The notes beneath the pieces are model-generated. The model was not told the origin of the DNA and did not search any database. It saw nothing but the letters and a program-made list of their open reading frames with translations. Below, in pieces: positions 1-57,919 of a DNA stretch of 64,000 bases. Origin of the DNA: an uncultured Gammaproteobacteria bacterium (GTDB lineage Bacteria > Patescibacteriota > Microgenomatia > Levybacterales > UBA12049); NCBI GenBank assembly GCA_964391315.1, contig CAYMJR010000001.1, positions 69,949 to 133,948 of the forward strand. The letters run 5' to 3'. Position 1 is the first letter of the stretch. Each line of letters begins with the position of its first letter. The position numbers and the translations under genes were made by a program.

Positions 1-440
1 TTAACCCACTCGTGCCATGATATCCATCTGAGTGCAGCAACTTCTTCTGAATTTGGTCTTGGTGTTTGATCGGAAAAACCAACCATCACCGGACAAATTT
101 CATTTTCAACAATTCTGTCTTTTTCAGCTCGGTATCGGTAATCAGGAAGTGCCATTTCAATTTTTACATTTTCTAAACCCAATTCAAATTTCAGGCGTCT
201 TCTTGCTGCGGAAATCGGTCTCTCCCACAACTCAGGATGCCCACAAACAGAATTTGTCCAGACACCAGGCCAAGTCTTTTTATTAAATGACCGTTGCTGC
301 AGCAGTAATTCATTGTTACTGTTAAACAAAAATAATGAAAATGCACGATGTAGCGGCGTCTTGTCTGAATGAGCTGCAAGCTTTTCCATTGTTCCCAGGA
401 CTTTATTTTTATCCGTAACTAATACAACATAATCTTTCAT
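1..440 (-). CDS. idi: Isopentenyl-diphosphate delta-isomerase type 1 (N-terminal 146 codons; 3' end runs off window start)
   Basis: Absent from ORF track because no stop lies in the window. My translation from ATG at 440 gives MKDYVVLVTDKNKVLGTMEKLAAHSDKTPLHRAFSLFLFNSNNELLLQQRSFNKKTWPGVWTNSVCGHP..., with IDI-1 motifs HRAFS and WPGVWTNS.CGHP. Start lies 1 nt after the mvaD stop. Confidence 0.85.
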   Translation of the reverse strand, partial: MKDYVVLVTDKNKVLGTMEKLAAHSDKTPLHRAFSLFLFNSNNELLLQQRSFNKKTWPGVWTNSVCGHPELWERPISAARRRLKFELGLENVKIEMALPDYRYRAEKDRIVENEICPVMVGFSDQTPRPNSEEVAALRWISWHEWV

Positions 441-441
441 A

Positions 442-1428
442 TTAAAATAAATGCTTCTCAACTAATCTAGCTCCGTTACTTGAATAATTAATAATTGTTT
501 TTTGTACCCCTTCAATTTTTTCTACAAGAGCAGCAACTTTTTTGGCATCTTTTTTCTGACAAATAATATGAACATCCTGTCCTGTGTTAAGCGTAAAATA
601 TACCTCAAGTCCCTCGCTTCGCCATTTTTTAACAAAATGTAGTACCCGCAAACTTTCCGGCAATAAATAAATTAATGATGGATGTGAAGTCAAATAAATC
701 GCATGAAGTTCTAATGCTTCTGCTTCTATCAATTCTCCAAACGCAATAAAATTCTTTTCTTTCATAAACCTCTTAATCGCTTTCATTTTCTTTTTATTCA
801 ATTCCAAACGAACATCAAAAAATGCACTTGATGTTGCCAATTTATGACCTTCTGTTGAACTTATTTCTTTTTTATTGGTACGTGTCAGCGCAAGAACATC
901 GACGACATCCCAATAATCTGGTTTATATAATGAGATTGCATACGATGTTTCACTTGTATCACCATCAAGCCACTCAACAAATCCATCAGGAATCGACCGA
1001 CAGGCAGAACCCGATCCCTGTCTTGCAAGAATTGATAGTTGTTTTTTAGAAAGTTTCAAACCTGCCGCTGTAGCACCGGCAACAGTTAGAGCTGCAAAAC
1101 CTGATGCGCTTGATGAGAGACCTTTAGAAGAAGGGAAATTATTATTACTTACAACTTTCGCTTTATAATCAATCTTTGCTAAAGCACGAATCCTATCTAA
1201 ATGTTTAATCACTCTATTTCCTTCAATTACTTTTTGTTCATTATCAACAGTAACAATATCTTGATAAAAATCGGGATTAAATTCAACTGTTGTCGTTGTT
1301 AACAAATTACTCAAATTCATCGAAATACTTCCGTTTTTTGGAAGCCGTAGAACATCATCTTTTGTTCCCCAATATTTGATAAATGCGATATTTGATGGTG
1401 CTACTGCTGTTGCTTTATACATTTTCAA
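442..1428 (-). CDS. mvaD: Diphosphomevalonate decarboxylase
   Basis: 328 aa. N-terminus APSNIAFIKYWGTKD and the GLSSSASGFAAL GHMP-type motif are typical of mevalonate diphosphate decarboxylase. Sits in the MVA operon. Confidence 0.9.
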   Translation of the reverse strand: MKMYKATAVAPSNIAFIKYWGTKDDVLRLPKNGSISMNLSNLLTTTTVEFNPDFYQDIVTVDNEQKVIEGNRVIKHLDRIRALAKIDYKAKVVSNNNFPSSKGLSSSASGFAALTVAGATAAGLKLSKKQLSILARQGSGSACRSIPDGFVEWLDGDTSETSYAISLYKPDYWDVVDVLALTRTNKKEISSTEGHKLATSSAFFDVRLELNKKKMKAIKRFMKEKNFIAFGELIEAEALELHAIYLTSHPSLIYLLPESLRVLHFVKKWRSEGLEVYFTLNTGQDVHIICQKKDAKKVAALVEKIEGVQKTIINYSSNGARLVEKHLF

Positions 1429-2389
1429 TTCTTACTCCTTCCGCATTGGTTTTAATAGATAAAAATTCTCCACCAGCAGCTTTTATCGCTTTCTTAATTG
1501 CAGATATTTTTGCATCTGGTGCTAAACCGATAATGCAGTCTCCCCCACCAGCTCCTGATAATTTTGCACCATATCCTCCGTTATCCCTTATTGCATAAAT
1601 CATGTCCCAAAGTTTGTTGGTACTAACACCAAGACTTTCCAAATATCCCTGATTAATATCCATCAGTTCACCAACCGTTTGCCAATCATTTTTGAGTAAT
1701 GCTCTTTGCGCCAAGGGAATCAATCTTTCAATTTCGGTATAGGTCCCTTCAATAATTTTTGGATACTTATCTGATGTTTCTTTTACCTGATTCATAAGTG
1801 TCACCGTATCTGCTTTTACCCCGCTATATCCGACAATAAGTGGCAATTGTTTTATATTTAATGGTTTAATAACTTTCCCTCCGGTAAAAAAATATAGTGT
1901 TCCTCCATAAATTGCTGCTGCGACATCAAATCCCGAACCTTTTCCCTGGATATCCAGAACAGTATTATATGCTAAATCAAAGAGTTGTTTGTTTGATAAT
2001 TTTTTATTAAACAATTCTGTGAGAGCTTTTATGACACAAACAATTGATGCAGATGAAGAACCAAACCCAAATTGAGAAGAAAATTCTGATTTGGTTATTA
2101 TTTTTATACCACTTTTTAAACCATATCTTTTTTTAAAATTTTTAACAGCAATTTCAATAAACATTGCTCCTTTAGGTATTTCCCCTTTTCCTATATTTTT
2201 TATTGTTTTTTTATAATCAGTAATTTTGACATCTGGTGCGTCAAGAGAAAATAAATCATTATCTATTAACGTAACTGTCATATACATCCGTTGATCAACT
2301 GCGGTAACAAGACAAGGTCTGTTATACACAACAGCATGCTCTCCAAAAAGCATTAATTTTCCTGGTGCTGAGACAGTAATTTTATTCAT
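1415..2389 (-). CDS. GHMP kinase, mevalonate-kinase-like (by operon position possibly phosphomevalonate kinase)
   Basis: 324 aa. SAPGKLMLFGEHAVVY N-terminus and GFGSSSA ATP motif. 14-nt overlap with mvaD. Confidence 0.75.
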   Translation of the reverse strand: MNKITVSAPGKLMLFGEHAVVYNRPCLVTAVDQRMYMTVTLIDNDLFSLDAPDVKITDYKKTIKNIGKGEIPKGAMFIEIAVKNFKKRYGLKSGIKIITKSEFSSQFGFGSSSASIVCVIKALTELFNKKLSNKQLFDLAYNTVLDIQGKGSGFDVAAAIYGGTLYFFTGGKVIKPLNIKQLPLIVGYSGVKADTVTLMNQVKETSDKYPKIIEGTYTEIERLIPLAQRALLKNDWQTVGELMDINQGYLESLGVSTNKLWDMIYAIRDNGGYGAKLSGAGGGDCIIGLAPDAKISAIKKAIKAAGGEFLSIKTNAEGVRIENV

Positions 2390-3317
2390 GAATTGTTACT
2401 CCTTTTGTTCCTAGAGTGAGATGTTCATATAAAGAATTTACTCTATTATTTTGATATACTAATAATACTCCTGTTCCCATCGTTTTTCCACCGCCCCCAC
2501 AGATCTTTGCAGCGCTACCCAATTTTTCAATATGCCTGATTATCTTTCTAACTGACGGCGATACTACTCCTAACTTTTCCAAATTCCGTTGTCCTTTCTT
2601 AATTATTTTTTTTATTTCCATCTCATTTGTATCAGTTAATGCACTAAATAAATTTTTTGTTAATTTCTCTTGATTATCAAATATTTTTTCTGCTTGTTTT
2701 TTATTTTTTGCTACAAACTTTTTAACAAGCTCTATCATCTCTCCTGTTGTTTCTTTTGGTTTACCAGTATCAACGATATAAAAATTTTTTGCAATTTTTC
2801 TTGAAAGTTTTACTGATAATTGTTTAATAATTTTTAACTCATCTGTCTCCCGCCGATACCAGATAAACCCTCCGTAACAACTTGCACTAGTATCCCCTCC
2901 CGAAGGATTTTTATGAATATATTTTTCAATTAAAAAAGCTATCTCATTTATTTTTTCTTTATCAAACGGTTGATCTAAAAATAATGTTATTGCTCCGGCA
3001 ATTGCAACGGCCGTTGCAGCGGATGACCCCATTCCTGACCCTACTGGTATTTCAGATGAAATCGTTAGTGTATATCCTGACTGCAATTTCTGTCGGTAAT
3101 ATTTTTCAGTAACAAAAATTGCATAGTTTACATACGTAACAAATTTTTCATCGTGATTATTTTTTATAATTATTTCTTTGTTATCATCCTTTCGAGAAAC
3201 TATCTCGACATACACACGTTTGTTGATCGCAGCAAGAAATGCAGGCTTACCATAAACGACTACGTGTTCTCCCAATAAATGTATTTTCCCTGGGGCAGAG
3301 ACTTTTATTCTCTTCAT
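2382..3317 (-). CDS. mvk: Mevalonate kinase (GHMP kinase)
   Basis: 311 aa. SAPGKIHLLGEHVVVYG and GSGMGSSAA motifs. 8-nt overlap with the downstream kinase. Confidence 0.75.
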   Translation of the reverse strand: MKRIKVSAPGKIHLLGEHVVVYGKPAFLAAINKRVYVEIVSRKDDNKEIIIKNNHDEKFVTYVNYAIFVTEKYYRQKLQSGYTLTISSEIPVGSGMGSSAATAVAIAGAITLFLDQPFDKEKINEIAFLIEKYIHKNPSGGDTSASCYGGFIWYRRETDELKIIKQLSVKLSRKIAKNFYIVDTGKPKETTGEMIELVKKFVAKNKKQAEKIFDNQEKLTKNLFSALTDTNEMEIKKIIKKGQRNLEKLGVVSPSVRKIIRHIEKLGSAAKICGGGGKTMGTGVLLVYQNNRVNSLYEHLTLGTKGVTIHE

Positions 3318-3616
3318 GTAGGTTTAAATTTTATTACGTATGTAATAACACTTTCAGGAGTCTCAGGAAATAATTTTCGAAGTACCGCAACAACTTTTCT
3401 TCCTTTGACCAAATCTTCTTGTTGCCAATCAACCAACTGTCCAATCATTTTTTCACCATTTTCCATAGCAACAATAACTACCGGATACGGTGCTTCCTGC
3501 ATAAAAGCTTTTGGTGGAACACGGATAATTGTCCATTGTTCAATAGCACCCATTCTTCCGATATGAGAGGCCGTCTTTCTTTGTCTTCTCCACAATTTAA
3601 CTGGCGTTGTAATCAT
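3314..3616 (-). CDS. DUF35-type OB-fold protein (thiolase/HMG-CoA synthase associated), lacking the zinc ribbon
   Basis: 100 aa. GAIEQWTIIRVPPKAF..APYPVVIVAMENGEKMIGQLVD...GRKVVAV matches the DUF35 OB-fold pattern. No cysteine is present. 4-nt overlaps with both neighbours. Confidence 0.7.
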   Translation of the reverse strand: MITTPVKLWRRQRKTASHIGRMGAIEQWTIIRVPPKAFMQEAPYPVVIVAMENGEKMIGQLVDWQQEDLVKGRKVVAVLRKLFPETPESVITYVIKFKPT

Positions 3617-4761
3617 AGTTTTTTCAAAATATGTATCGCTGCAACGGCGCCGCTTCCTCCGACATTATGTGTTAATCCAATCTTTGCATTTTTTACTTGT
3701 CTTTTTCCTGCAGTTCCCCGCAATTGTTCAACGATTTCAACAACTTGTTTGATTCCTGTTGCTCCAACTGGATGACCACAGGCTTTAAGTCCGCCAGAAG
3801 TATTTGTCACAACACTTTTACTGCCAAGAGTCATTTTCCCATCTGCAATATCTTTCGCACCATTGCCTCTTTTGGAGAATCCCAAATCTTCATTTGCTAT
3901 AACTTCTGCTATCGAAAAACAGTCATGAATTTCTGCCACGTCAATATCTGCTGGTGTAATATTTGCTTTTTTATATGCTCTTTTTGAAGCACTTACCACA
4001 GCACCAAGTGTTGTAAATGAATCACGATCAGAAAGCGCCAACGTATCTGTTCCCACTTCACTTGCAATAAAGGAAACTCTTTTTTGTTTTGCTTTTGGCT
4101 GTTCACTTGAAATGATAATTGCCGATGCTCCATCTGAAACTGGTGAACATTCAAGAAGTCTTAATGGATCTGCAATCTTAGTGCTTTTCAAAATTGTTTC
4201 AAGAGGAATTGCTTTTTGAAATTGCGCTTTTGGATTAAGACTTCCATGATAATGATTTTTTACTGATACGTGAGCGAGTAATTCTTCTGAAATATTGTAT
4301 TGCTCTATATATGATTGCGCCATCAGTGCATAAATTCCAGGAAATGTTGCACCTGATAAACGTTCTTCATCTGATCCTGCTGCCATAAGTCCTGAAGTAA
4401 TTTCATCAGGCTGACAATCAGTCATTTTTTCAACACCTAATACCATCACATTTGTATATTGTCCGGCAAGAACACTGTTGATTGCTGCGTGTAATGCCAA
4501 TCCTCCTGATGCACATGCTCCTTCGATATGAAATGCTGGAATATGGGTCCCCAATTCTTCAGCAAAAAATGATCCTAAATTTGCCTGATTGCCCAAAAGA
4601 TCAGCAAGCATATTCCCAACAAACAATGCATCTATTTGTTTTGCTGTTTTTTTTGCATCCGAAAGTGCGCCGATCATCGCTTCTCGCGCAAGAGCCCGAG
4701 GAGATAATTTCCATAATTCACCAAATTGTGTTGTTGCAATTCCTAAAACTGAAATATTCAT
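3613..4761 (-). CDS. Acetyl-CoA acetyltransferase (thiolase), archaeal-type
   Basis: 382 aa. Active-site context EGACASGG, plus C-terminal GLKACGHPVGATG and NVGGSG thiolase motifs. Confidence 0.85.
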   Translation of the reverse strand: MNISVLGIATTQFGELWKLSPRALAREAMIGALSDAKKTAKQIDALFVGNMLADLLGNQANLGSFFAEELGTHIPAFHIEGACASGGLALHAAINSVLAGQYTNVMVLGVEKMTDCQPDEITSGLMAAGSDEERLSGATFPGIYALMAQSYIEQYNISEELLAHVSVKNHYHGSLNPKAQFQKAIPLETILKSTKIADPLRLLECSPVSDGASAIIISSEQPKAKQKRVSFIASEVGTDTLALSDRDSFTTLGAVVSASKRAYKKANITPADIDVAEIHDCFSIAEVIANEDLGFSKRGNGAKDIADGKMTLGSKSVVTNTSGGLKACGHPVGATGIKQVVEIVEQLRGTAGKRQVKNAKIGLTHNVGGSGAVAAIHILKKL

Positions 4762-5798
4762 CCTATTGTATGTGTTTGTTTCAAATATTGTGCATAAGAT
4801 ATATATACTTTCTTTTCAATTTGCTCTGCAACTGAAATTACTTTCTTTTGTTTTTTTGTAATATGTGGTGTCGTTTCAAAAATAAATCCATCAGAACCTG
4901 CACCTGAACCGTAGGATACAAAAAAGATTTTTTGTTTAGGTTTTGCAATATCCAAAACAGCAGCAAGACCTAACAATGATGATGCAGTATAGGGATTGCC
5001 TACTTTTTCAACAGTAAGAGAGGGCGCTAACTGCTCGGGAGTAAAACCCAATTTCTGTGCAGTAACCCGCGGAAATTTACCATTTGGCATATGAAATACA
5101 CAATAATCAAAATCTGAAGGATTCATCCGGCTTTGTTTCAACAGTTTTTTTCCTGCAGACAACACGTGTGTAAAATATGCAGGTTCTCCGGTAAATCGTC
5201 CAAAATGTGAAGGATACCGAGCTCCTTCCCGTCTCCAAAAATCCGGAGTATCAGAAGTAAATGATGTCATTGCACGAATATTTGCAATAATTTCTGTTTT
5301 TTTATTTCCTAAAATATATGCTGTTGCTACACTTGATGCTGTATATTCAAGTGCATCATGGGGCTTTCCCTGTGCGGTATCACTGCCAATTGCCAATCCA
5401 TAGGAAACCTTTTTGCTTTCTAAAAGTCCCGACAATGCCTGCATGCCAGCAGTCGCTGCTTTACAGGCAAATTCCAAATCAGCAGCAAAATAATCGTTAC
5501 CTACTCCCAAAAATTCTGCAACTGTTGATGATGAAGGATTAACAGAATATGGATGACTTTCTGATCCAAAATACACGCCGCCAATTTTTTCAGGAAGAAC
5601 ATTTGCCATTACCAACGCCTTTTTGCCCGCCTCAATTGCAAGCGTTACCGCATCTTCATCAATTCCAGGAACAGCTTTTTCCATCACTTTAAATCCTCCT
5701 ATAATTTCTTCAGGAACTTTTTTCCATACATCGGCAATATCCGAAAGTTTAATCCGATATTGTGGAATATATGTACCGTAGCCTGTTATACCAACCAT
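4758..5798 (-). CDS. Hydroxymethylglutaryl-CoA synthase
   Basis: 346 aa. GITGYGTYIPQYRI start, FACKAATAG catalytic Cys context, and HMPNGKF and SYGSGAGSD motifs of the archaeal/bacterial HMGCS family. Confidence 0.85.
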   Translation of the reverse strand: MVGITGYGTYIPQYRIKLSDIADVWKKVPEEIIGGFKVMEKAVPGIDEDAVTLAIEAGKKALVMANVLPEKIGGVYFGSESHPYSVNPSSSTVAEFLGVGNDYFAADLEFACKAATAGMQALSGLLESKKVSYGLAIGSDTAQGKPHDALEYTASSVATAYILGNKKTEIIANIRAMTSFTSDTPDFWRREGARYPSHFGRFTGEPAYFTHVLSAGKKLLKQSRMNPSDFDYCVFHMPNGKFPRVTAQKLGFTPEQLAPSLTVEKVGNPYTASSLLGLAAVLDIAKPKQKIFFVSYGSGAGSDGFIFETTPHITKKQKKVISVAEQIEKKVYISYAQYLKQTHTIG

Positions 5799-6946
5799 TA
5801 CTTCTTTCCCCTTCCTAATGTTTCATGAGCATGTGCCAAACTTCCTTCACTCAGACTTGCCAACAAAGATAATTCTCCTGCTAAAACTGCTCCTGCAATA
5901 ATTTCAGCAAATTTCTCAACTTTTCCTTTTCCCGTAACACCAAGTATCTCCAACGCTTCTTTTTGTGTTGCCAATCCTGTCCCTCCTCCTACTGTCCCGA
6001 TCATCAACGCGGGCAGATAAATGGAAAAATATAAATCTCCGTTTGGCAAAACTTTTGCAGTTGTTATTCCACAACTTGCCTCTACAACATGCGCAGGATC
6101 TTGGCCTGTTGCAAGGAAAAGAGCTGCAATTACATTTGCAAAATGCGCATTAAATCCAAGCGACCCGCTCATCGCAGATCCAATCATACATTTGGCAAGC
6201 CAGACATCAAATATCTTTTCAGGAGTTGTCTTGAGAATATTTTTTATTATTTCTTTTTTTACAATAATCTCTGCCCATGCAGTAAATCCTCGGCGAGAAA
6301 TAACGTTTAACCATGCAGGTTTTTTATCAATATCAAAGTTTCCTGCAACAGCAAGACACTTTGCTCCTGTTTTTTGTTCAATGAGTTCTGACATTTTTTG
6401 CGTTGCAATTGTCACCATATTCATTCCCATTGCATCCTCGGTATCAAAAGAAAAACGGATAAACACATAATCCGCAAGCATTTGTACTGATATTTTTTTG
6501 CATTGCAAATGTTTTGATGTCGACGCTGCTGTTTTTTGCAGCAACGATTCATTTTTTACAATCCATGTTTGCAACGCTTTGCTTTTTTCCAAAGATCCTG
6601 TATAAAATACCGGCCCCCGTGTTGTTCCTTCCCGATAAACCGCAACTATTGCTCCACCAGATTCTGCAATCACCTTACATCCCCTATTAATAGATGCAAT
6701 TAATGCTCCCTCTGTCGTTGCTAATGGCACAAAAACACTTTCAACTTTAGAATTTAGACTTTTAACTTTCAGCGGTCCCGCAACACCAAGTGGTATTTGT
6801 GTGGCTCCAATCATATTTTCGCAATGTTTCTTTGACGCGATTTCTTCATCTAATGAAAAATTACCAATGTGTGAAACAGCAATTCCTAACTCTTTTTCCA
6901 AAGATTTTCTTCTTTCTTTTGCTGATGATAAATCTCTTAAATTCAT
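5798..6946 (-). CDS. HMG-CoA reductase, class I
   Basis: 382 aa. Motifs CENMIGATQIPLGVAGPL, TTEGALIAS, DAMGMNMV and IGTVGGGT. TAATG overlap with the HMGCS start. Confidence 0.9.
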   Translation of the reverse strand: MNLRDLSSAKERRKSLEKELGIAVSHIGNFSLDEEIASKKHCENMIGATQIPLGVAGPLKVKSLNSKVESVFVPLATTEGALIASINRGCKVIAESGGAIVAVYREGTTRGPVFYTGSLEKSKALQTWIVKNESLLQKTAASTSKHLQCKKISVQMLADYVFIRFSFDTEDAMGMNMVTIATQKMSELIEQKTGAKCLAVAGNFDIDKKPAWLNVISRRGFTAWAEIIVKKEIIKNILKTTPEKIFDVWLAKCMIGSAMSGSLGFNAHFANVIAALFLATGQDPAHVVEASCGITTAKVLPNGDLYFSIYLPALMIGTVGGGTGLATQKEALEILGVTGKGKVEKFAEIIAGAVLAGELSLLASLSEGSLAHAHETLGRGKK

Positions 6947-7015
6947 ACCTCTACTATAACAATTTTCCCACTAACTTAACACAGGCATCACCTGGCATAA
7001 ATGAGTCGTAAATTT

Positions 7016-7044
7016 TTGCCAAATCATTCGATTGCGGTTATAAT
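7016..7044 (+). promoter_or_regulatory. Sigma70-type promoter (TTGCCA-N17-TATAAT), ATG 6 nt after the -10
   Basis: -35 at 7016-7021, -10 at 7039-7044, start codon at 7051. No SD sequence. Confidence 0.5.
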
Positions 7045-7050
7045 CAGGGT

Positions 7051-7551
7051 ATGAATGAACATGATGTCATAAAATTCTATCACGAGTATTCACCAAGAAT
7101 TCTTCGATATTTAAAAAAATACTTACCTATTGATGAAGCAAAAGAAATTCTGAACGATGTTTTCTTAGAAGCTGTTGACTCCATGCCGACATTACAAAAG
7201 CAAACCAATTTACAAGCATGGCTCTATAAAATAGCACACAATAAAATGGTTGACTACTATCGGAAGAAAAAAATAAAATCGTTCCTTCTTTCACAAATTC
7301 CTTATCTTGAACCACTTGCACATGAAATGCATCAACCGGAATTTATTTTGGAAAAAAATAAAATACGGGATAATATTGAAAAAGCAATGCACAAGCTTTC
7401 ACAAAAATATCAATCAGTTCTCCGCATGCATTATGAAGAGCATATGCCAGTCAAATCTATGGCAGTTGTTCTCAACATAACACCAAAAGCAACTGAATCA
7501 CTTCTTTTTCGGGCTCGCCAAAGTTTCATCAAGGCATATGAACGAACGTGA
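7051..7551 (+). CDS. ECF-type RNA polymerase sigma factor
   Basis: 166 aa. Region 2 (LQAWLYKIAHNKMVDYYRKKK) and region 4 (YQSVLRMHYEEHMPVKSMAVVLNITPKATESLLFRARQ) patterns. Confidence 0.85.
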   Translation: MNEHDVIKFYHEYSPRILRYLKKYLPIDEAKEILNDVFLEAVDSMPTLQKQTNLQAWLYKIAHNKMVDYYRKKKIKSFLLSQIPYLEPLAHEMHQPEFILEKNKIRDNIEKAMHKLSQKYQSVLRMHYEEHMPVKSMAVVLNITPKATESLLFRARQSFIKAYERT

Positions 7552-7768
7552 ATTTCTTCAGACATTACAACAAAGAGTTCGTGAACAAGAACAAGCGATC
7601 GCCACAATTCCATTTTTTGGATTTGTCGCAAAATGGCTCAGTGTTCATCCGTGGCGATATCTCATTCCTTTAGCTTTTCTTTTAACACTCCTTCTCCGAT
7701 TACTCTTTGGCAGCAGTTATACGGATTTTATTTTATATCTATTCCGTGCAAATTCACTGCTTCATTAA
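7538..7768 (+). CDS. Small membrane protein, possible anti-sigma factor
   Basis: 76 aa. Overlaps the sigma gene stop by 14 nt. Two hydrophobic segments. Function inferred from position only. Confidence 0.4.
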   Translation: MNEREFLQTLQQRVREQEQAIATIPFFGFVAKWLSVHPWRYLIPLAFLLTLLLRLLFGSSYTDFILYLFRANSLLH

Positions 7769-7772
7769 CAAT

Positions 7773-8087
7773 ATGAGAAAAAGAATTTTTTTGATTTATA
7801 CAAGTTACATTTGGACAAAAACACTTCTGGGATTAACGTTTTCTCCATATAAATCTGTAAAAGAGACGATTAAACGCCCTATCCTCTTGCCAGTTATTTT
7901 TTCTCCAATGCTTGCGGCACTGATTCTCTTGCTTGCAGCAAAAATTGGCTCTCTTCTCATTGTTGTGTATGGTTTGAAACGCGAAGTGGTGGCTATATTT
8001 TTAAGTACGACGCTGATTTCAATTCTTTTCTGGCAACTATTATTAATTTATTTACTAATCAGCTTTTTAGTGGCAAAACGTCGTTAG
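7773..8087 (+). CDS. Hypothetical multi-pass membrane protein
   Basis: ATG at 7773 (MRKRIFLIY...) chosen over the upstream track start at 7707, which overlaps the previous ORF. Hydrophobic throughout. Confidence 0.5.
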   Translation: MRKRIFLIYTSYIWTKTLLGLTFSPYKSVKETIKRPILLPVIFSPMLAALILLLAAKIGSLLIVVYGLKREVVAIFLSTTLISILFWQLLLIYLLISFLVAKRR

Positions 8088-11681: not shown

Positions 11682-12584
11682 TTAGGATTTATTTTTTAAT
11701 TCTTTCGCTACCATCTCAGCAACTGACAAAATTTCTAACTTTTCAAATCGTTTCTCCTCTGGTACGTTAACACTATCTGTCACAAACACCTTTTTAACGA
11801 CAGAGTTCTGCAACAGTTCTGGTGCTTCTTTGCTAAAAACAGGATGCGTTGCAAAAACATAAATTTCCGAAACTCCATGTTTGTGAAGTAATTTTGCTGA
11901 CTCAACAATCGTTCCTCCGCTTGCAATCATATCATCAACAACAAATGCTCTTGACGATAAATTTGAGACTTCCCGATCAAACTTTTCGATCACAATCTTG
12001 CCGGTATTGAGATCCCGATCTTTGACAGTCGCAATCCATTCCATACCGTCCAGTAACTCAGACATTTTGCCAATTCGGCGAAGCCCTCCCATGTCTGGTG
12101 AAACAAGAATCCCTCCTCCTAACTCTTTTATTTTATTTGCAAACAATGGAAGCGCTGATAAGTGCGCAACTGGAACAGAAAACACTTCAGGAATTTTAAT
12201 AGAATGAAAATCGACTGCAATTACTTTTGTTGTCCCTGTTCTTTCCAGCGCGTGAACAACAACATCCAACGATACCGCTTCGCCATCCCGGAAAACGTGA
12301 TCTTGTCGCTGATACCCAAGATATGGAACAACAACAGTAATACTTTCTGCACCGCTTCTTTCCAATCCATCAATAATAAAGAAAAGTTCCATAAAATTCT
12401 CTGCGGTTGGAGTACTTGTCGACTGAACAACAACACAATGTTCATCAACGACACGTTCCTGGATCTGGATCCGCTTCTCTCCATCAGGAAAAACAAAAAT
12501 TTCAATCGGAGAAAGCTCCTGACCCATCGCATGAGCAATTTTTTCTGCAAGTGGTTTATTCGACGTACCGGAGAATATCTTCAT
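11682..12584 (-). CDS. prs: Ribose-phosphate pyrophosphokinase family protein (paralog 2)
   Basis: 300 aa. VVPYLGYQRQD and VVDDMIASGGT PRPP-binding motifs. Confidence 0.85.
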   Translation of the reverse strand: MKIFSGTSNKPLAEKIAHAMGQELSPIEIFVFPDGEKRIQIQERVVDEHCVVVQSTSTPTAENFMELFFIIDGLERSGAESITVVVPYLGYQRQDHVFRDGEAVSLDVVVHALERTGTTKVIAVDFHSIKIPEVFSVPVAHLSALPLFANKIKELGGGILVSPDMGGLRRIGKMSELLDGMEWIATVKDRDLNTGKIVIEKFDREVSNLSSRAFVVDDMIASGGTIVESAKLLHKHGVSEIYVFATHPVFSKEAPELLQNSVVKKVFVTDSVNVPEEKRFEKLEILSVAEMVAKELKNKS

Positions 12585-12588
12585 ACTA

Positions 12589-13545
12589 TTAGAGAATTAA
12601 ACCTGAACTGATTGATTCTCCTGAGCGGATGCGGCGGATTGCTTCAGCAATAAGTGGAGCAACCGACACAATTTTGATTTTTGCATTATTACGGACTTCT
12701 TCACGATGAGCAATTGAGTCTGTAATAATCATTTCTTCAATTGCAGAATCGTTAATTTTCTGTAATGCATCACCTGATAAAACTCCATGTGTCGCGACAA
12801 CTCTGACACTCTTTGCACCTTTTTCTTTAATATGATTTGCTGCATTCACAATCGTTCCTGCAGTATCAACCATATCATCAACTAAAATAACATCACGATC
12901 CTTAACATTACCAATCATCGCTTGAGTATTTGAAACATTATTGAGCAAAATATCACGTTTTTTGTAGACAAGTGCAATATCATCTGATTTGACAAGTCTT
13001 GCGTATGCTGCTGCGCGTACCATTCCCCCTTTATCTGGAGCTGCGACAACAGGATCTCCTAAATTTCTTTTTTGGATTTCCGGTAGTAATGAATAACTAC
13101 CGAAAAGATTATCCCATGGAATATGGGTAAATCCTTCCTGCTGTTCTGAATGAATATCCAACGTTAAGATGTGATTTGCACCTGCATTAGTAATTGCACT
13201 GGCAACAACTGAAGAACTGATTGGAACACGTGACATTTCCTTTCTGTCTTGTCGTGCATAACCATAGTATGGGATGACTGCAGTGATTTCTTGTGATGAG
13301 GCTCTTCTGGCAGCATCAATCATAAAAAGAAGTTCCATTATGTGATCGTTAACAGGGGTTGAGGTCGGCTGGATGATAAACACCATCCGTCGTCTTAAGT
13401 TTTTACTGATTCGTACGCGGATTTCTCCGTCTGAAAAAATACTAATTGGCTCCAGAACTTCGACACCAAGTATTTCTCCAATAGCATGTGCAAGAGCAGG
13501 GTTTGCCCGCCCAGTTAGTATGACAAAATCGTCACTGTTTGACAT
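12589..13545 (-). CDS. prs: Ribose-phosphate pyrophosphokinase (paralog 1)
   Basis: VIPYYGYARQDRK and LVDDMVDTAGT motifs. ATG at 13545 chosen: GGAGG lies 8 nt upstream and it sits 1 nt after the ybaB stop. Confidence 0.9.
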   Translation of the reverse strand: MSNSDDFVILTGRANPALAHAIGEILGVEVLEPISIFSDGEIRVRISKNLRRRMVFIIQPTSTPVNDHIMELLFMIDAARRASSQEITAVIPYYGYARQDRKEMSRVPISSSVVASAITNAGANHILTLDIHSEQQEGFTHIPWDNLFGSYSLLPEIQKRNLGDPVVAAPDKGGMVRAAAYARLVKSDDIALVYKKRDILLNNVSNTQAMIGNVKDRDVILVDDMVDTAGTIVNAANHIKEKGAKSVRVVATHGVLSGDALQKINDSAIEEMIITDSIAHREEVRNNAKIKIVSVAPLIAEAIRRIRSGESISSGLIL

Positions 13546-13546
13546 C

Positions 13547-13837
13547 TTATTTTCCTCCAAGCATTCCAGCCAGTCCGGAAAGCCCACCTGTCATTGATTG
13601 CAATTTCTTTGCTGCAACTTCCTGAGATTTTTTAATCGCTTCGTTTACTGCTTCTTTGATATCATCGTCTGATTTACCGTTTGATTTGATTTCCCAAATT
13701 TTTTGATCAGCACTGATCTTAACATATACACCCTTTTTACTCACTTCAACAATTTCCTGTTGGAGTTGTTTTTGGATCTGCATTGCTTGATCCCGCATTT
13801 TTTTAAGTTCTCCTATTTGTGAAAATGGATTCATCAT
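13547..13837 (-). CDS. ybaB: Nucleoid-associated protein YbaB/EbfC
   Basis: 96 aa. KMRDQAMQIQKQLQQEIVEVS...GVYVKISADQKI pattern. Sits in the conserved dnaX-ybaB-recR neighbourhood. Confidence 0.85.
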   Translation of the reverse strand: MMNPFSQIGELKKMRDQAMQIQKQLQQEIVEVSKKGVYVKISADQKIWEIKSNGKSDDDIKEAVNEAIKKSQEVAAKKLQSMTGGLSGLAGMLGGK

Positions 13838-16691: not shown

Positions 16692-17657
16692 ATGGACAAA
16701 AAACTAAACATCGTCTGTCTTGGTGGCGGGGTCGGCACCAGTAATATGCTCCGAGGACTCAAGCACTACCCTGTTCACTTAACAGTTGTCACCTCAATGG
16801 TCGATGACGGCGGATCATCCGGACGTTTGAGAAAATACTATAAAATGATGCCTCCTGGCGATATGATCTCCTGTATTGCCGCACTCATTCCTGACGAACA
16901 AGAAGAACTCAGACAGCTCCTCATCTATCGCTTTCCAGGTGACGGAGAAGCAGACAATACTATTGATGGACACAAACTCGGCAATCTTATCATGCTCGCG
17001 GAATTCCTACGAACCGGAGATTTTTATAGTGCGCTTGAAAAAACCAAACAAATATTTGGCGTGACCGCAGATCTTTTCCCGGCGACAGACACACGTACTG
17101 ATTTATCAGCACTTACCAATGACGGTCGAACCATTCATACCGAAGAAACGCTTGATCTGGCACTCTATAGTGAGCCGCATGGTCTGAAAAAAATCTTTGT
17201 TAAACCAGAAGACGCACCGGTCAATGAAAAAATGATCCAAAATATTCTTGATGCGGATGTGATTATCAGCGGACCTGGAGACCTTTATACCAATCAATTA
17301 CCGGTTCTTGTTATTCCAAAAATTAAAGAGGCATTTCTGCAAAGTCGCGCAAAGAAAATTTTCGTCCTAAATATTGCTAATAAACCTTTTGAAACAAAAG
17401 ATTTTACGTTACAGAATTTTATTGAAGCTTTCACAGAACATCTTGGAACATTTCCTTTTGATATTGTGATTGCCAATAACAATCATACATTTCCTATTCC
17501 AACAAAATATCGTTACCGTTATATTCAAATCGACGAAGCATTACGAGACAACAAAAACTTTTCGCTTGTTGAAAAAGATCTTGTAAGTGAAGATTTTCCT
17601 ATTGCTCACAATCCGAAAAAGTTGGCTAAAGCTATCATGAACGAAATTATTGCTTAA
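16692..17657 (+). CDS. YvcK/CofD-family (UPF0052) protein
   Basis: 321 aa. VCLGGGVGTSNMLRGLK and VTSMVDDGGSSGRLR motifs. Confidence 0.85.
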   Translation: MDKKLNIVCLGGGVGTSNMLRGLKHYPVHLTVVTSMVDDGGSSGRLRKYYKMMPPGDMISCIAALIPDEQEELRQLLIYRFPGDGEADNTIDGHKLGNLIMLAEFLRTGDFYSALEKTKQIFGVTADLFPATDTRTDLSALTNDGRTIHTEETLDLALYSEPHGLKKIFVKPEDAPVNEKMIQNILDADVIISGPGDLYTNQLPVLVIPKIKEAFLQSRAKKIFVLNIANKPFETKDFTLQNFIEAFTEHLGTFPFDIVIANNNHTFPIPTKYRYRYIQIDEALRDNKNFSLVEKDLVSEDFPIAHNPKKLAKAIMNEIIA

Positions 17658-21153: not shown

Positions 21154-22176
21154 TTACTCGATTGCTGAGTATAAATTTTTTGGATCTTTCAAAACAGGAA
21201 TCATATCTAGATCTTTCCCAACGGCATATTTTTCCGCGAGTTCATAGACAAGTCTGAGAATCGAATAATCTTCCAAAGCAATACCAACAGAATCAAATAA
21301 TGTTATTTCTCGACTATTTCTTCGTCCAACTTTTTTGCCGCTAATCACTTCTGATAATTCCGCAGCAACTGCTTTCTCTGCTTCTTTCCGCGTAAATCTC
21401 TGAATTTCTCCTTCAACAAATGATTGTTCAAAATACTCGACCATAATTCGTGACCTTCTAACAAGTTCAAAATCCAATTCAGTTTTGCCGACAGTGTCTC
21501 CGCCAAGGCCATTAATATGAACACCCTCTTTTATCCACTCATTTTTGACAACATTTGCATGCATTTTTGCAGCAATACAGACAGTAACAATATCTGCACC
21601 TCTCACTGTTTCCTCAGCATTGTTACATGGAACAAGTTTTAAAGGAGTATTTTTTAAATTCTTTTCAAACTTCATCATCGCCTTCTCATCAATGTCAAAA
21701 TATCGCACTTCTGTAATATCACGAACTAATTGTAACGCTCTGATCTGAAATTCACTTTGTGCTCCTGTCCCAATGATTGCTACAACATGCGAATTCTTTC
21801 TTGCCATAAGATCTGTCGCCAACGCAGCTGTCGCAGCTGTACGAAGCGCTGTCAGAATCGTCATCTCGCTATACAACAATGGATAACCAGTATCAATTCG
21901 TGATAACTGTCCTGTTGCCACAACTGTTAATTCTCCTTTTTTTGTATTTGCAGGATGGCAGTTCACATATTTATAGGTGTAATATTGCTCATTATCGCAA
22001 ATCGGCATGAGTTCCAAAACACCTCCAGGAACATGCATACAAGGACGAGGCATTTTGTTGAACTGATCGAAACGATTAAAATCTCTTTTTAGTGCATTCA
22101 TTAAATCACGCAAAAATGCGTTCAATCCGTGACGCTTTAAAAGTTTTGTTACTGATGCAACTGTCATTATTTTCAT
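21154..22176 (-). CDS. Ornithine cyclodeaminase / mu-crystallin family protein
   Basis: 340 aa. Rossmann segment VAIIGTGAQSEFQ and family-typical TALRTAATAALAT. 21 nt upstream of proS. Confidence 0.8.
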   Translation of the reverse strand: MKIMTVASVTKLLKRHGLNAFLRDLMNALKRDFNRFDQFNKMPRPCMHVPGGVLELMPICDNEQYYTYKYVNCHPANTKKGELTVVATGQLSRIDTGYPLLYSEMTILTALRTAATAALATDLMARKNSHVVAIIGTGAQSEFQIRALQLVRDITEVRYFDIDEKAMMKFEKNLKNTPLKLVPCNNAEETVRGADIVTVCIAAKMHANVVKNEWIKEGVHINGLGGDTVGKTELDFELVRRSRIMVEYFEQSFVEGEIQRFTRKEAEKAVAAELSEVISGKKVGRRNSREITLFDSVGIALEDYSILRLVYELAEKYAVGKDLDMIPVLKDPKNLYSAIE

Positions 22177-53778: not shown

Positions 53779-53885
53779 AATTTTATGGTAGCATATCTTT
53801 ATTTTTGCTCTACTATCTACTACATAAGACATGTTCAATTTTTGGAAGTAAAGTGGAGTTCTTGAGTAGAATAAGTAATAATTAG

Positions 53886-53958
53886 TGGGCATCCATGGAG
53901 TCGAACCATGCGCCTCTTTCTTATCAGGAAAGCGTTCTAGCCGATGAACTAGATGCCC
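53886..53958 (-). tRNA. tRNA-Ile (anticodon GAU)
   Basis: 73 nt: GGGCATC-TA-GTTC-ATCGGCTA-GAAC-G-CTTTC-CTGATAA-GAAAG-AGGCG-CATGG-TTCGACT-CCATG-GATGCCC-A. All stems pair. CCA is not encoded. Confidence 0.9.
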
Positions 53959-54008
53959 GTTTAATAACAGTAATTATAGCAGAAAGAGGCTGAGATGACT
54001 ACAGATTT

Positions 54009-54197
54009 TTAAAATCCTGCTGCATTAGCAATTTTAGAGAGAAATGGCGCTACCATTGTCCGATGAAATATTACTTTTACTGCTCTAAGTCGTGGATTCA
54101 CAACCGCACCCATCGCTTCCATTCCGACAGCAAGACTTGCTAAAAAAATTGCTGTTGCTTCTTTTGGTTCTTGTTCTGATGTTTCATGTTCTTTCAT
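54009..54197 (-). CDS. Hypothetical small protein
   Basis: 62 aa. TATAAT (54210-54205) lies 7 nt upstream of the ATG. No homolog recognised. Confidence 0.3.
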   Translation of the reverse strand: MKEHETSEQEPKEATAIFLASLAVGMEAMGAVVNPRLRAVKVIFHRTMVAPFLSKIANAAGF

Positions 54198-54274
54198 GAT
54201 TCTGATTATAGAGGTAAGTATGAGGACTAACTTGATATCTTCCTTATAAAATCTTTAGAAGAAAACAGCAGGAG

Positions 54275-54385
54275 TTACAAACTTGCGATTAGAGCAACAA
54301 TGAAAATAATTCCTCCAACCAAAGCAAGTCGTTTCCATCGTTCCTTTTGTGCGTCAGGGTTACTTCCCTGTTCCGGACTTGCCAT
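54275..54385 (-). CDS. Possible 36-aa tail-anchored membrane peptide
   Basis: Below the track cutoff. My translation is MASPEQGSNPDAQKERWKRLALVGGIIFIVALIASL. Starts 4 nt after the tRNA-Cys 3' end. No SD sequence. Confidence 0.25.
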   Translation of the reverse strand: MASPEQGSNPDAQKERWKRLALVGGIIFIVALIASL

Positions 54386-54389
54386 AGTG

Positions 54390-54462
54390 AGGCGCGAAGG
54401 GGAGTTGCACCCCTGAATGGCTGTTCTGCAGACAGCTGTGTTAGCTACTTCACCACCGCGCC
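54390..54462 (-). tRNA. tRNA-Cys (anticodon GCA)
   Basis: 73 nt: GGCGCGG-TG-GTGA-AGTAGCTA-ACAC-A-GCTGT-CTGCAGA-ACAGC-CATTC-AGGGG-TGCAACT-CCCCT-TCGCGCC-T. U73 discriminator and A13/A22 mismatch as in bacterial tRNA-Cys. T loop is unusual (G at position 55). Confidence 0.75.
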
Positions 54463-54573: not shown

Positions 54574-54869
54574 AAGGCGAGAATAGTTTTGTCTGTCCCT
54601 AAGTAATAGCGGGACCAACCAGGTACCATTCACTCAACCTGTTGCCTTACATTCCCCTCATTAACCCAGTCGTGAGACTGTCCTAATAAGTTTCCTGTCT
54701 TCCCCAATCCTAAATTTCTCAAAAAAGGAAATTTAAGAAAGGAGGTGATCCATCCCCAGCTTCGGCTAGGGATACCTTGTTACGACTTAAGCTTCATCGC
54801 TGAATTTGGACTCGAACCCCTTGCGGGATGCTTCATCCACTCCCAACTTTGCTGCCTTGACGGGCGGTG

Positions 54870-55665
54870 ATCGCAGTAAGAACTATTCTGCTCCCCACTG
54901 GACGTGCGGATTTCCCGCATCCAGCGAGTCTCTTATAAAATCCTCTTTGAGAAGTCTAATCTTCCCAATGCCATCGGAAGTAAGATGCTGTTTGTTTAAC
55001 ATTAATTCTGCTACTTTACAAAATAATGCAAAACTAAATTTTTTCTTTGCTTGTAAAGGATACTTCTGAAAAAAAGGTATAACTTTTGTTGTGATATCTT
55101 TTAAGTTTGAGACTTTATATTTACAATGGGGTCTCCACTTTTTATATCTCTCATAGTTGAGGTAATAAATATTACCACAACTAAGCGTTTCTTTTACTCT
55201 TTCCAGAATTTCCTTATCATCTTCTCGTAATTCAATTTCAAAGATGAGTCTTACTTCAAGCAAACGATTATTGTTATGGTTGTTAAAAGTAATACTAAAA
55301 CAACCTTCACCATCTACTAAACCGACTAAATAATAAGGATTTAATTTTGAGTTCATCCCTTCTCCTAATATTATTATACATAATACTAAGATACTATGGA
55401 ATTTGCTGACTTCCTCTAGCCTATTATTGTTCTGACGCATAGAGGATCTCCTTGGGTCACGCAAAAAACAATTTCAAACATCCTAAAAAGCTTTTTCAGG
55501 GCTCTTCCTCTTAGTACACATAAGAGTCGAGCTGCTTTGTAATTTTAGGCTACTCTTCGTTACATCGAACCCTTCAGACTTTCTCTTACGAGCTAAGTCC
55601 TGTTCTTCAACTACATGAGTGGATTTTCACCACTTTGTTTTTTACGCTGCCAAGCGCATTTAATT
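54870..55665 (-). mobile_element. 796-nt insertion in 16S between TGTACA and CACCGCCCGTC (about E. coli 1396/1397), carrying a LAGLIDADG gene
   Basis: Flanking exon sequences rejoin to the universal TGTACACACCGCCCGTC. The insert starts AAUUAAAUGCG and ends CUUACUGCGAU. Confidence 0.8.
54883..55356 (-). CDS. LAGLIDADG homing endonuclease (single-motif, about 157 aa)
   Basis: ATG at 55356 is preceded by AGGAGAAGGG. MNSKLNPYYLVGLVDGEGCFSI carries the LAGLIDADG motif. Lies entirely inside the insertion. Confidence 0.85.
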   Translation of the reverse strand: MNSKLNPYYLVGLVDGEGCFSITFNNHNNNRLLEVRLIFEIELREDDKEILERVKETLSCGNIYYLNYERYKKWRPHCKYKVSNLKDITTKVIPFFQKYPLQAKKKFSFALFCKVAELMLNKQHLTSDGIGKIRLLKEDFIRDSLDAGNPHVQWGAE

Positions 55666-55981
55666 TGTACAAGACCCGAGAACGTATTCACCGCGGCCTT
55701 CTGATCCGCGATTACTACTGATTCCGACTTCATGGAGTCGGGTTGCAGACTCCAATCTGAACTGAGGCGAAATTTCTGAGATTAGCTTGCCGTCACCGGC
55801 TTGCAGCTCATTGTTCTTCGCCATTGTAGGGTGTGTGTTACCCAAGGTATAAGGGACGTGCTGACTTGACGTCTTCCGCTCCTTCCTTCCCAGTAAAACT
55901 GGGACCGTTTCTAATGAATATGTAACATTAGACACGGGTTGCGCTCGTTTCCCCACTTAAGGGAACACCTCCGAATCGTTT

Positions 55982-56796: not shown

Positions 56797-56940
56797 ACGG
56801 CACGAGCTGACGACAGCCATGCATCACCTGTGTTACCATCCTTGCGGATTGCCCCTTATTTCTAAAGGGCTGTACGGTAGCATGTCAAACCTTGGTAAGG
56901 TGTTTCGCTTCGTCTCGAATTAAACCACACGCTCCACCAG

Positions 56941-57000
<60 letters not shown>

Positions 57001-57919
57001 TCCGCTTAATGCGTTAGCTTGGACCCCTGCAAGCAAGCTTGCAAGAGCCAGCGGACATCGTTTACGGCTAGGACTACACAGGTATCTAATCTGTTTCGCT
57101 ACCCTAGCTTTCGTGCCTCAGCGTCAGGAAAAGTACAGAAGCTTGCCTTCGCCCTTGGTGTTCCAGTTAATATCAACGCATTTCACTGCTACACTAACTG
57201 TTCCAGCTTCCCAACCAATCCTCAATTCCATGAGTATCCTCGCCACTCCCAAGGGTAAGCCTTGGTCTTTAAGCAAAGACTTTATGGAACGCCTACGCAC
57301 ACTTTACGCCCAATGAATCCGGATAATGCTTGCTCCCTACGTATTACCGAGACTTCTGGCACGTAGTTAGTAGGAGCTTATTCTCCAAGCTGTGAACGGC
57401 TTGGTAAAAGGAGTTTACAACCCGAAGGCCTTCATCCTCCACGCGGCGTCGCTGCGTCAGACTTTCGTCCATTGCGCAATATTCCCAGTTGCTGCCATCC
57501 GTAGATGTACTGCCCGTGTCTCAGTGCAGTTGTGGCTGATCGACCTCTCAGTCCAGCTACCCGTCATTGCCTTGGTGGGCCTTTACCCCGCCAACTAGCT
57601 GATAGGACGCAGGCTCCCCCCTTGGCGGTCCGTTAAGACCTTTACTCTTACGAGAACTATGGAGAATTACCCCCTCTTTCGAGGGGCTATGCTCCACCTA
57701 GGGATAGATTCCTACGCGTTACTCACCCGTCTGCCGCTGACTTGTATTGCTACTCATCCGCTCGACTTGCATGCTTAAGGCACGCCGCCAGCATTCATCC
57801 TGAACCAGGATCAAATTCTCAAAAAAATTTGAGAGGTACCATCGCTGTGATGATACTTCTGATTTCGGATTTTTTTTATTCTGATTGCTCAGAGTTAAAT
57901 AGGTAAACCCGAAAAAATT

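Follow-up and report, generated by a model that had tools for sequence, protein, structure and literature searches.

Mevalonate (MVA) gene clusters of the Microgenomates, members of the candidate phyla radiation (CPR), were described by Hoshino and Gaucher (2018, Mol Biol Evol; PMC6107057). They reported that these clusters are syntenic with a cis-prenyltransferase gene, that genes of the methylerythritol phosphate (MEP) pathway are sparse in CPR bacteria, and that some of them carry an 'enigmatic' isopentenyl phosphate kinase (IPK). For the relation among the variant mevalonate pathways, the literature offers schemes only (PMC9254496, PMC6107057, PMC11052028); in one of them, phosphomevalonate decarboxylase (PMD) becomes diphosphomevalonate decarboxylase (DMD), phosphomevalonate kinase (PMK) arises from mevalonate kinase (MK), and IPK is lost (PMC9254496). 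In this work, we describe a cluster of this kind at one end of a 64,000-nucleotide stretch of contig CAYMJR010000001.1 (assembly GCA_964391315.1; positions 69,949 to 133,948), which is called the window below. Its scaffold protein, DUF35, has lost the zinc ribbon, its second kinase stands where sister operons encode IPK, and its decarboxylase has Asn in place of the catalytic Asp.

With moderate confidence, and from sequence comparison, we propose that the cluster is a nine-gene, translationally coupled operon, which would lead from acetyl-CoA to isopentenyl diphosphate and dimethylallyl diphosphate and feed UppS. In this model, thiolase and an archaeal-type HMG-CoA synthase (HMGCS) would be held together by the zinc-ribbon-less DUF35 protein, a complex suggested by homology and gene coupling, and a class I HMG-CoA reductase (HMGR) would follow this trio in the pathway. 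The first of two GHMP kinases (kinase A) would phosphorylate mevalonate, and the second (kinase B), with an archaeal-MK scaffold and PMK-type motifs, would add a second phosphate on mevalonate 5-phosphate (MVA5P), replacing the IPK of sister lineages. A decarboxylase of the PMD lineage would act next, followed by isopentenyl-diphosphate isomerase (IDI) and UppS. The product of UppS most likely serves as the undecaprenyl lipid carrier; the place of its gene at the operon end and the published synteny of MVA genes with cis-IPPS fit such a supply.

Eight consecutive open reading frames (ORFs) occupy positions 1-6946 of the window, all on the minus strand and all where the initial annotation had placed them, in the order HMGR, HMGCS, thiolase, 100-aa DUF35 protein, kinase A, kinase B, decarboxylase and type 1 IDI (IDI-1). 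The last of these starts at 440, and its reading frame, found by our own translation, leaves the window at its edge, as had been noted before. Checked base by base, the junctions overlap or abut as first described: TAATG (a 1-nt overlap) at 5798, ATGA overlaps of 4 nt at 4758, 3613 and 3314, an overlap of 8 nt at 2382, and a gap of 1 nt at 441 between decarboxylase and IDI. At 1415 the overlap is 8 nt with the ATG start at 1422, the earlier figure of 14 nt requiring the TTG start at 1428. Spacing of 1 nt or less is found at 7/7 operon junctions versus 7/47 of the other same-strand junctions in the window (median gap there, 36 nt), so the operon is packed beyond chance, and unusually so even in a compact genome like this one. 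The count of eight genes, in contrast, has to be raised to nine. Contig L001 matches window 1-7746 at 99.987% identity and reaches past the window edge. It carries the full 184-aa IDI and, 17 nt downstream, UppS, a cis-prenyltransferase of the undecaprenyl-diphosphate-synthase type (PF01255, 275 bits); the operon therefore has a ninth gene just outside the window, and this last gene consumes the pathway product. The part of IDI-1 inside the window (1..440, minus strand) comprises the first 146 of its 184 codons and scores 190 bits on NF002995 (cut-off 127) and 137 bits on TIGR02150 (cut-off 106). Promoter and terminator scans at both operon ends gave nothing informative. Divergent from the operon, at 7051-7551 on the plus strand, lies a gene for a sigma factor of the ECF type, to which the L001 copy assigns Sigma70_r2 and r4_2 domains; a strong sigma-70-like promoter match (11/12) is located at 7016-7044, and Levybacteria relatives carry a similar small gene upstream of HMGR.

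Relatives of the locus were collected by an HMGCS scan of one genome per GTDB species. Among loci with phylum-level names, Levybacteria are closest in HMGCS (70-74% identity), followed by Gottesmanbacteria (56-65%); Micrarchaeota, Archaeoglobi, Ignavibacteria and Methanosarcinales reach 51-57%. In a neighbour-joining tree, the HMGCS sequences of Levybacteria and Gottesmanbacteria, including that of the window, form one monophyletic clade. The 16S gene of the window (54770-57818, minus strand, about 3 kb) is split by two insertions, each with an ORF for a LAGLIDADG endonuclease (56080-56736 and 54883-55464). Homing-endonuclease insertions in 16S genes are a hallmark of CPR bacteria. Both observations agree with the CPR-like host proposed initially, and judged by them, the DNA comes from a Levybacteria-like bacterium within the Microgenomates. 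Some of the collected records look like mislabelled or misbinned metagenome-assembled genomes (MAGs): those titled 'uncultured Gammaproteobacteria bacterium' (L011, L014, L015, L018, L020, L024, L025) have typical Levybacteria/Gottesmanbacteria MVA operons with a short DUF35, and one titled 'Saccharimonadales' (L031) has a Micrarchaeota-like trio.

The first operon gene encodes HMGR (5798..6946, minus strand, 382 aa), a class I, NADPH-type enzyme with 410 bits on PF00368. It scores 438.5 bits on TIGR00533, narrowly below the cut-off of 441.8, and 55 bits on TIGR00532, the model of the class II, degradative enzymes. The motifs listed for it initially (CENMIG, DAMGMN, GTVGGG), like the GEHxVVY of the kinases, were all present on re-reading. 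HMGCS (4758..5798, minus strand, 346 aa) is of archaeal type, passing the cut-offs of NF003274 (484 bits) and TIGR00748 (437 bits) and reaching 117 bits on the bacterial mvaS model TIGR01835 (cut-off 360); its catalytic motifs GSESH, FACKA and FHMPNG are present. The archaeal/SCP2-type acetoacetyl-CoA thiolase (3613..4761, minus strand, 382 aa) exceeds the cut-off of NF004720 with 455 bits; ACASG, the motif of its catalytic Cys, and HDCF are both present. For thiolase, HMGCS and DUF35, the top PDB match is the same entry, 6ESQ/6ET9 (298 bits to 6ESQ_A, 384 bits to 6ESQ_I and 33 bits, respectively), while the mvaS proteins of S. aureus and E. faecalis, both Firmicutes, give HMGCS 65-73 bits. 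These matches support the archaeal-style upper pathway that the initial annotation had read from the locus; the small protein does score as DUF35, and the enzymes are not placed inside the Firmicutes mvaS/mvaE. Its further statement that the trio is the archaeal arrangement holds in part: the trio is archaeal-type here, but it is not exclusive to archaea and CPR bacteria, as the HMGCS-thiolase pair also occurs in Ignavibacteria, one Bacteroidetes MAG and one Desulfobacteria MAG, and most Ignavibacteria loci have a full-length DUF35 beside it.

The DUF35 scaffold protein itself (3314..3616, minus strand) has 100 aa and no Cys. It matches PF01796 with 37.5 bits (cut-off 27.1) and lacks a match to PF12172, the family of the rubredoxin-like zinc ribbon; residues 48-127 of 6ESQ_E align to it (E 6e-7). 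An AlphaFold (AF2) model (pLDDT 81) shows a barrel of five strands preceded by a short helix at the N-terminus. In Foldseek, 17/17 matches at E <= 0.001 are DUF35 subunits (best 6ESQ_G, E 6e-8), which come from thiolase-like complexes (6ESQ, MucC, PhlB, ChsH2, Shy, BbsA). Profile and fold thus agree with the earlier assignment of the small protein to DUF35 with an OB fold. The N-terminal helix, PVKLWRRQ, runs straight into the OB fold. When short and long forms are aligned with MAFFT, a clean 32-residue gap covers exactly both CxxC knuckles and places the deletion junction at Gln12/Arg13 (3578..3583, minus strand), where relatives have a C4 zinc ribbon of about 32 residues. The short form retains PVKxWR at its N-terminus, which corresponds to xxWRK in full-length proteins, as well as the linker leading into the OB fold. 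That the protein is cysteine-free and lacks the zinc ribbon, another early claim, is consequently upheld.

The short form is found in the window and in 25/25 Levybacteria/Gottesmanbacteria-type loci with a DUF35 ORF, where the proteins have 99-111 aa (one truncated ORF has 64 aa), 0-1 Cys and no CxxC; L089, L091 and L092, which are more remote Microgenomates operons, have it too. Nearly all DUF35 copies of the archaeal and Ignavibacteria loci, and the copy of another Patescibacterium, L048, have 128-150 aa and two CxxC, the one exception being a truncated 75-aa ORF in L073. Among the 120 listed of 156 DUF35 homologues, all have PF01796 only, 118 are 98-104 aa long and the others 90 and 118 aa. 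The full-length controls L029, L048 and L079 match both PF12172 and PF01796, and a Gottesmanbacteria copy PF01796 only. Across the loci compared, loss of the zinc ribbon is a clade-wide character, not a quirk of one genome. In the solved DUF35 homologues that have been compared, zinc is held by four Cys, except for the Cys3His1 site of Shy, and the Shy(DUF35)-Sal complex makes its primary interface through the N-terminal helix together with the OB subdomain (PMC12329534). Since these are the parts kept in the short form, we infer that a DUF35 with this deletion can still serve as a scaffold. A literature search returned no paper linking DUF35 with CPR bacteria.

Kinase A (2382..3317, minus strand, 311 aa) scores 183 bits on the MK equivalog model TIGR00549, over its cut-off, and has the MK-type motifs GEH, HxNPSGGD(T/N) and GGGG. 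Its role is best read from operons that contain IPK, which were reached by searching from an IPK-decarboxylase fusion. Four such operons, all of Microgenomates type, were obtained. L088 has the order IDI, kinase, decarboxylase, IPK; L089 has thiolase, short DUF35, a kinase-decarboxylase fusion and IPK; the Curtissbacteria operon L091 has HMGCS, thiolase, short DUF35, kinase, IDI, decarboxylase and IPK; and L092, with HMGR, HMGCS, thiolase, short DUF35, kinase, decarboxylase and IPK, encodes exactly the seven steps of the MK-PMD-IPK route. Each operon contains one GHMP kinase, with 36-45% identity to kinase A and <=26% to kinase B, and these sole kinases cluster inside the kinase A clade. Because every other step is encoded in L092, its sole kinase must be an MK, and kinase A is its orthologue; on this comparison, kinase A is probably the mevalonate kinase, of a CPR type. 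A motif test that equates GEH with MK and GEY/GEW with PMK was dropped, as the sole kinase of the Curtissbacteria operon has GEY.

Kinase B (1415..2389, minus strand, 324 aa) has an archaeal-MK-like scaffold (PRK03926 245 bits, TIGR00549 203 bits). It carries FGFGSSSA (2048-2071), GSGFDVA (1919-1939) and GAGGGDC (1535-1555), and the motifs FGFGSS, GSGFD(V/I)A and GAGGGD are common to kinase B and to kinases scoring above the PMK equivalog cut-off (263 and 242 bits on TIGR01220). At the same positions, kinase A and the archaeal MKs show GSGLGSS, (P/A)S..D(T/N) and GAGGGG, or variants of these. In the sampled clusters, kinase B and IPK never occur together: kinase B is present in 23 relatives' loci, the window and L090, IPK in the four operons described above, and kinase B fills the IPK slot. 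A tblastn search with an IPK domain query gave no match to an AAK-type IPK in the window, L001 or the 17-kb loci of 24 relatives, and a Pfam scan of 29 further window ORFs detected neither MEP enzymes nor IPK (PF00696). From its motifs and distribution, kinase B is a probable second kinase with a phosphate acceptor. An IPK pattern (GGG[SA][FYW]GH) also had no match, to which we give no weight, as it would miss real CPR IPKs (GHGxGSxxH). Two fusions involve these kinases: L089 encodes a kinase A-decarboxylase protein of 630 aa (1272-3164), followed by IPK, and L090 a kinase B-decarboxylase protein of 646 aa (5862-7802), with a kinase-A-like gene ahead of it.

The decarboxylase (442..1422, minus strand; 326 aa from ATG, 328 aa from the TTG at 1428) is a putative ATP-dependent mevalonate-(di)phosphate decarboxylase of the PMD lineage. 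Its best PDB match is 6N0X/6N0Y with 289 bits, compared with <=187 bits for classical mevalonate diphosphate decarboxylases (MDDs); 6N0X is the PMD of Anaerolinea thermophila, identified as such in PMC9254496. The protein scores 262 bits on TIGR01240 and 184 bits on NF040704 (cut-off 475). An IPK-fused decarboxylase scores 266 bits on TIGR01240, and this model therefore cannot separate PMD from DMD. The name 'diphosphomevalonate decarboxylase' given initially agrees with that of the TIGR01240 family, but is insecure as a label, the protein being closest to a phosphomevalonate decarboxylase and having Asn for the catalytic Asp. Names derived from hidden Markov models were rejected for the late steps altogether, given this equally high score and the fact that both kinases pass the MK cut-off. 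At the YWG-x position, classical MDDs have Lys, the A. thermophila PMD Asn and the window protein Thr20. In S-x-x-G-x, the first x is Arg in classical MDDs, Thr in the A. thermophila PMD and Thr190 here, and the last x is Met, His and His193, respectively.

In phmmer and MAFFT alignments, Asn279 (codon at 586..588, minus strand) is aligned with the catalytic Asp, which is D280 in AthPMD, D281 in SsoDMD and D282 in EfaMDD, and LNTGQD replaces (L/M)DAGPN. The change from Asp to Asn is found in 14/20 aligned Levybacteria/Gottesmanbacteria-type relatives and in about 10 of the 150 closest 50%-identity clusters of a 1.8-billion-protein library, all of which are nearest relatives; that Asn is kept across some ten clusters argues that it is under selection. 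Equivalents of the remaining catalytic residues, K187, S191 and R144, are present. SsoDMD with D281N stays active, and D281T and D281V turn it into a 3-kinase (PMC9254496); the mechanism around the catalytic Asp is discussed in PMC7414129. We infer that the window enzyme is active despite Asn279. A Thermoplasma-type route, in which the Asn protein would act as a 3-kinase only, was rejected, as there is a single DMD-family gene and no bisphosphomevalonate decarboxylase partner.

For the late steps, we lean, slightly, towards the order of MK, PMK-like kinase B and decarboxylase. This order is suggested by kinase B, which retains GEH and the MK substrate-side residues (Ser, Asp, Thr) that hold the mevalonate moiety, so that a mevalonate-type substrate (MVA5P) is favoured over isopentenyl phosphate. 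It is also suggested by the Levybacteria clade, in which the decarboxylase pocket drifts after the loss of IPK, His to Gln or Met and Asp to Asn. The published scheme cited at the outset matches the same order (PMC9254496).

A number of points weigh against this order or the assignments on which it depends. Neither kinase reaches the cut-off of a PMK family (TIGR01220, cut-off 166: kinase A 87 bits, kinase B 91 bits; NF040957, cut-off 500: 57 and 87 bits), and both pass that of MK, so the initial remark that the PMK step is not clearly assigned was justified. PRK03926 gives kinase A 130 bits versus 245 for kinase B, and the M. mazei MK (6MDE) gives 67 versus 145 bits, so that by whole-protein score kinase B is the better MK. 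According to PMC6107057, no CPR mevalonate-pathway enzyme has been characterised, and PtoMBD with D309N is dead (PMC9254496). An AAK-type IPK could be encoded elsewhere in the genome, beyond the 64 kb and additional 2.6 kb surveyed. The motif SSTEGHKLA, which includes T190 and H193, is common to the window decarboxylase and the IPK-linked copy of L088, and Gottesmanbacteria decarboxylases are indistinguishable from IPK-linked ones at these substrate positions. The PMD-type residues kept in this way argue for MVA5P as the substrate of the decarboxylase, and for decarboxylation before the second phosphorylation.

The latter possibility, which we regard as doubtful though it survives best among the alternatives, is that kinase A produces MVA5P, PMD converts it to isopentenyl phosphate, and kinase B is an IPK of the GHMP family, a non-orthologous replacement of the amino-acid-kinase (AAK) type. 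The match to the A. thermophila PMD and the Thr and His where DMDs have Arg and Met agree with it. N-to-K and H-to-M are the only two changes that separate the deposited variant 6N0Z from 6N0X, and PMD specificity is reported to be switchable to DMD through mutagenesis (PMC9254496). All IPK-linked or IPK-fused decarboxylases (L088, L089, L091, L092, P0153) carry S/T and H at the Arg/Met positions (SSTEGH, SSSEGH, STTAGH), and in cluster L085 the IPK-fused copy has SSSEGH versus KSRAGM in a second copy adjoining a bona fide PMK. Kinase B is located exactly where IPK is missing, and its fusion with the decarboxylase parallels the IPK-decarboxylase fusion. The mevalonate-holding residues of kinase B speak against this alternative, since isopentenyl phosphate has no such moiety, as does the Levybacteria drift from His to Gln/Met and from Asp to Asn, as if the pocket had changed after IPK loss. 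Nor do we know of any precedent for an isopentenyl phosphate kinase in the GHMP family. An evolutionary reading that we offer tentatively is that Levybacteria and Gottesmanbacteria swapped IPK for the MK-derived kinase B and kept the PMD-lineage decarboxylase; its boldest form makes kinase B a GHMP-family IPK acting after an Asn-bearing PMD.

Cluster L085 (GCA_015657915.1, NPIE01003509.1; 6774-12883) contains the KSRAGM decarboxylase, an IDI-PMK fusion, the IPK-decarboxylase fusion and an MK. From its gene content, it appears to encode both late routes side by side, with two Rosetta-stone fusions, and genes for heliorhodopsin and geranylgeranyl reductase are located nearby.

A textbook assignment, in which kinase B is the MK, kinase A a divergent PMK and the decarboxylase an ordinary DMD of a eukaryote-type lower pathway, is in our view unlikely. 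MK models and structures do score kinase B far higher, kinase A diverges more of the two paralogues and has no GHMP_kinases_C Pfam match, the decarboxylase is named DMD by TIGR01240, and CPR homologues fall in the MVK, PMVK and DPMD trees of Hoshino and Gaucher (PMC6107057). This assignment is opposed by the IPK operons L088, L089, L091 and L092, in which the sole GHMP kinase is of the kinase A type, and by the PMK-type motifs, three of which are present in kinase B and none in kinase A. It is opposed, too, by the score that TIGR01240 gives to the IPK-fused enzyme and by the absence from the decarboxylase of the Lys, Arg, Met and Asp of classical DMDs. That both kinases are MKs, redundant or heterodimeric, with a standard IPK elsewhere as in the Chloroflexi/haloarchaea-type pathway, is improbable: both pass the MK equivalog cut-off with every MK catalytic residue retained, and IPK does occur in Curtiss-, Woese- and Shapirobacteria of the Microgenomates (in Woesebacteria apart from MVA clusters, beside Nudix genes), but tblastn found no IPK in the window, L001 or the 17-kb loci of the 24 relatives, no named Levy- or Gottesmanbacteria IPK is found among the 240 best listed IPK homologues (a minority of which are named), the strict keeping of two kinases in reduced genomes speaks against redundancy, and the PMK-type motifs of kinase B would be left unexplained.

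Several relatives have additional genes in their MVA operons. Extra genes lie within the operons of L007, L008, L012 and L014, and others are likewise inserted or appended in L091 (7649-8407) and L092 (10837-11559). A UbiE-like class I S-adenosylmethionine-dependent methyltransferase is encoded between the two kinases, and HAD-family hydrolases ahead of the decarboxylase or behind IPK; the presence of a phosphatase amid phosphorylated intermediates is unexplained. In L028, a carotenoid-synthesis protein (PF04240) accompanies the operon. These methyltransferases, HAD hydrolases and the carotenoid-synthesis protein were considered as IPKs and ruled out, as were the IDI neighbours in relatives, which are PsbP-like and TIR proteins.

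Elsewhere in the window, the Rfam alignment of the 16S gene covers model positions 9-902 only; the 3' motifs 1050, 1100, 1220 and 1492 are located farther downstream, and the second insertion interrupts the 1392 motif. A weak match to a group II intron domain at 54870-54929 has 35 bits, under the gathering score of 40. Genes for tRNA-Cys(GCA) and tRNA-Ile(GAT) follow downstream of 16S (53885-54462, minus strand). Neither 23S nor 5S rRNA was detected within the 64-kb window, and the rRNA genes thus appear to be unlinked. Other genes include two adjacent paralogues of phosphoribosyl pyrophosphate synthetase (ribose-phosphate pyrophosphokinase; 300 and 332 aa) at 11682-13587 on the minus strand, and a homologue of the CofD-family 2-phospho-L-lactate transferase at 16692-17657 on the plus strand, which is unexpected for a reduced CPR genome. 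An ornithine cyclodeaminase/mu-crystallin protein is encoded at 21154-22176 and a Fic-domain protein at 58515-59285, both on the minus strand.

The locus bears on the question of whether, and in which lineage, MK and PMD gave rise to PMK and DMD. One bacterial class has two otherwise collinear operons, MK, decarboxylase and IPK in one and MK, a PMK-like MK paralogue and decarboxylase in the other; paired in this way, they are natural enzyme sets for a direct test of the origin of the classical mevalonate pathway. If IPK was indeed replaced by kinase B, the clade would be a living intermediate between the PMD/IPK and PMK/DMD routes, and in the boldest form of that reading, kinase B would be the first GHMP-family isopentenyl phosphate kinase. 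The role of the catalytic Asp is debated, and a decarboxylase with Asn in its place puts that role to a natural test. A DUF35 without zinc may show which part of the scaffold is dispensable, which would be useful for compact channelling modules in the engineering of isoprenoid production.

Compared with the clusters of Hoshino and Gaucher, the operon has the same families (archaeal AACT, HMGS, HMGR-I, two MK-family kinases, a DMD-family decarboxylase and IDI-I), the same clustering, the same cis-prenyltransferase synteny and the same taxon. The core, an archaeal-style MVA cluster in Microgenomates, is already published, and the arrangement is not new. Those authors relied on tree position alone to call the second kinase a PMVK and the decarboxylase a DPMD, and their paper makes no mention of DUF35, zinc-ribbon loss, the Asp-to-Asn change or the mutual exclusion of kinase B and IPK. 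Four elements are new here: a DUF35 whose zinc ribbon is deleted throughout a clade, a reassignment of both kinases, the exchange of IPK for kinase B and a decarboxylase with Asn for Asp; our literature search found no paper with the DUF35 deletion, the kinase A/B-IPK pattern or such a decarboxylase.

The Methanothermococcus thiolase/HMGCS/DUF35 complex (6ESQ) shares with the operon the gene order HMGCS-thiolase-DUF35, the thiolase and HMGCS genes overlapping by 4 nt here, and its DUF35 OB fold superposes with a TM score of 0.68 at 30% identity. It differs in that DUF35 has 100 aa here and not about 130, the C4 zinc ribbon being gone and the N-terminal WR(K/R) helix retained, and in that the host is a bacterium. 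For the window proteins, a heteromeric complex whose shared CoA site channels acetoacetyl-CoA is predicted from homology and gene coupling. Relative to the haloarchaea/Chloroflexi-type lower pathway (MK, PMD, IPK), the decarboxylase is nearest to its PMD, with Thr and His common to both, and sister Microgenomates operons encode exactly MK, decarboxylase and IPK; the window operon, in contrast, has a second GHMP kinase for IPK and Asn for the catalytic Asp. With the classical lower pathway (MK, GHMP-type PMK, DMD), it shares three GHMP-superfamily enzymes in a row and a kinase B with three PMK motifs. Kinase B, however, reaches 91 bits on TIGR01220 and is overall closer to archaeal MKs, and the decarboxylase, in place of the Lys of YWGK, the Arg and Met of S-R-x-G-M and the Asp of DAGPN, has T20, T190, H193 and N279.

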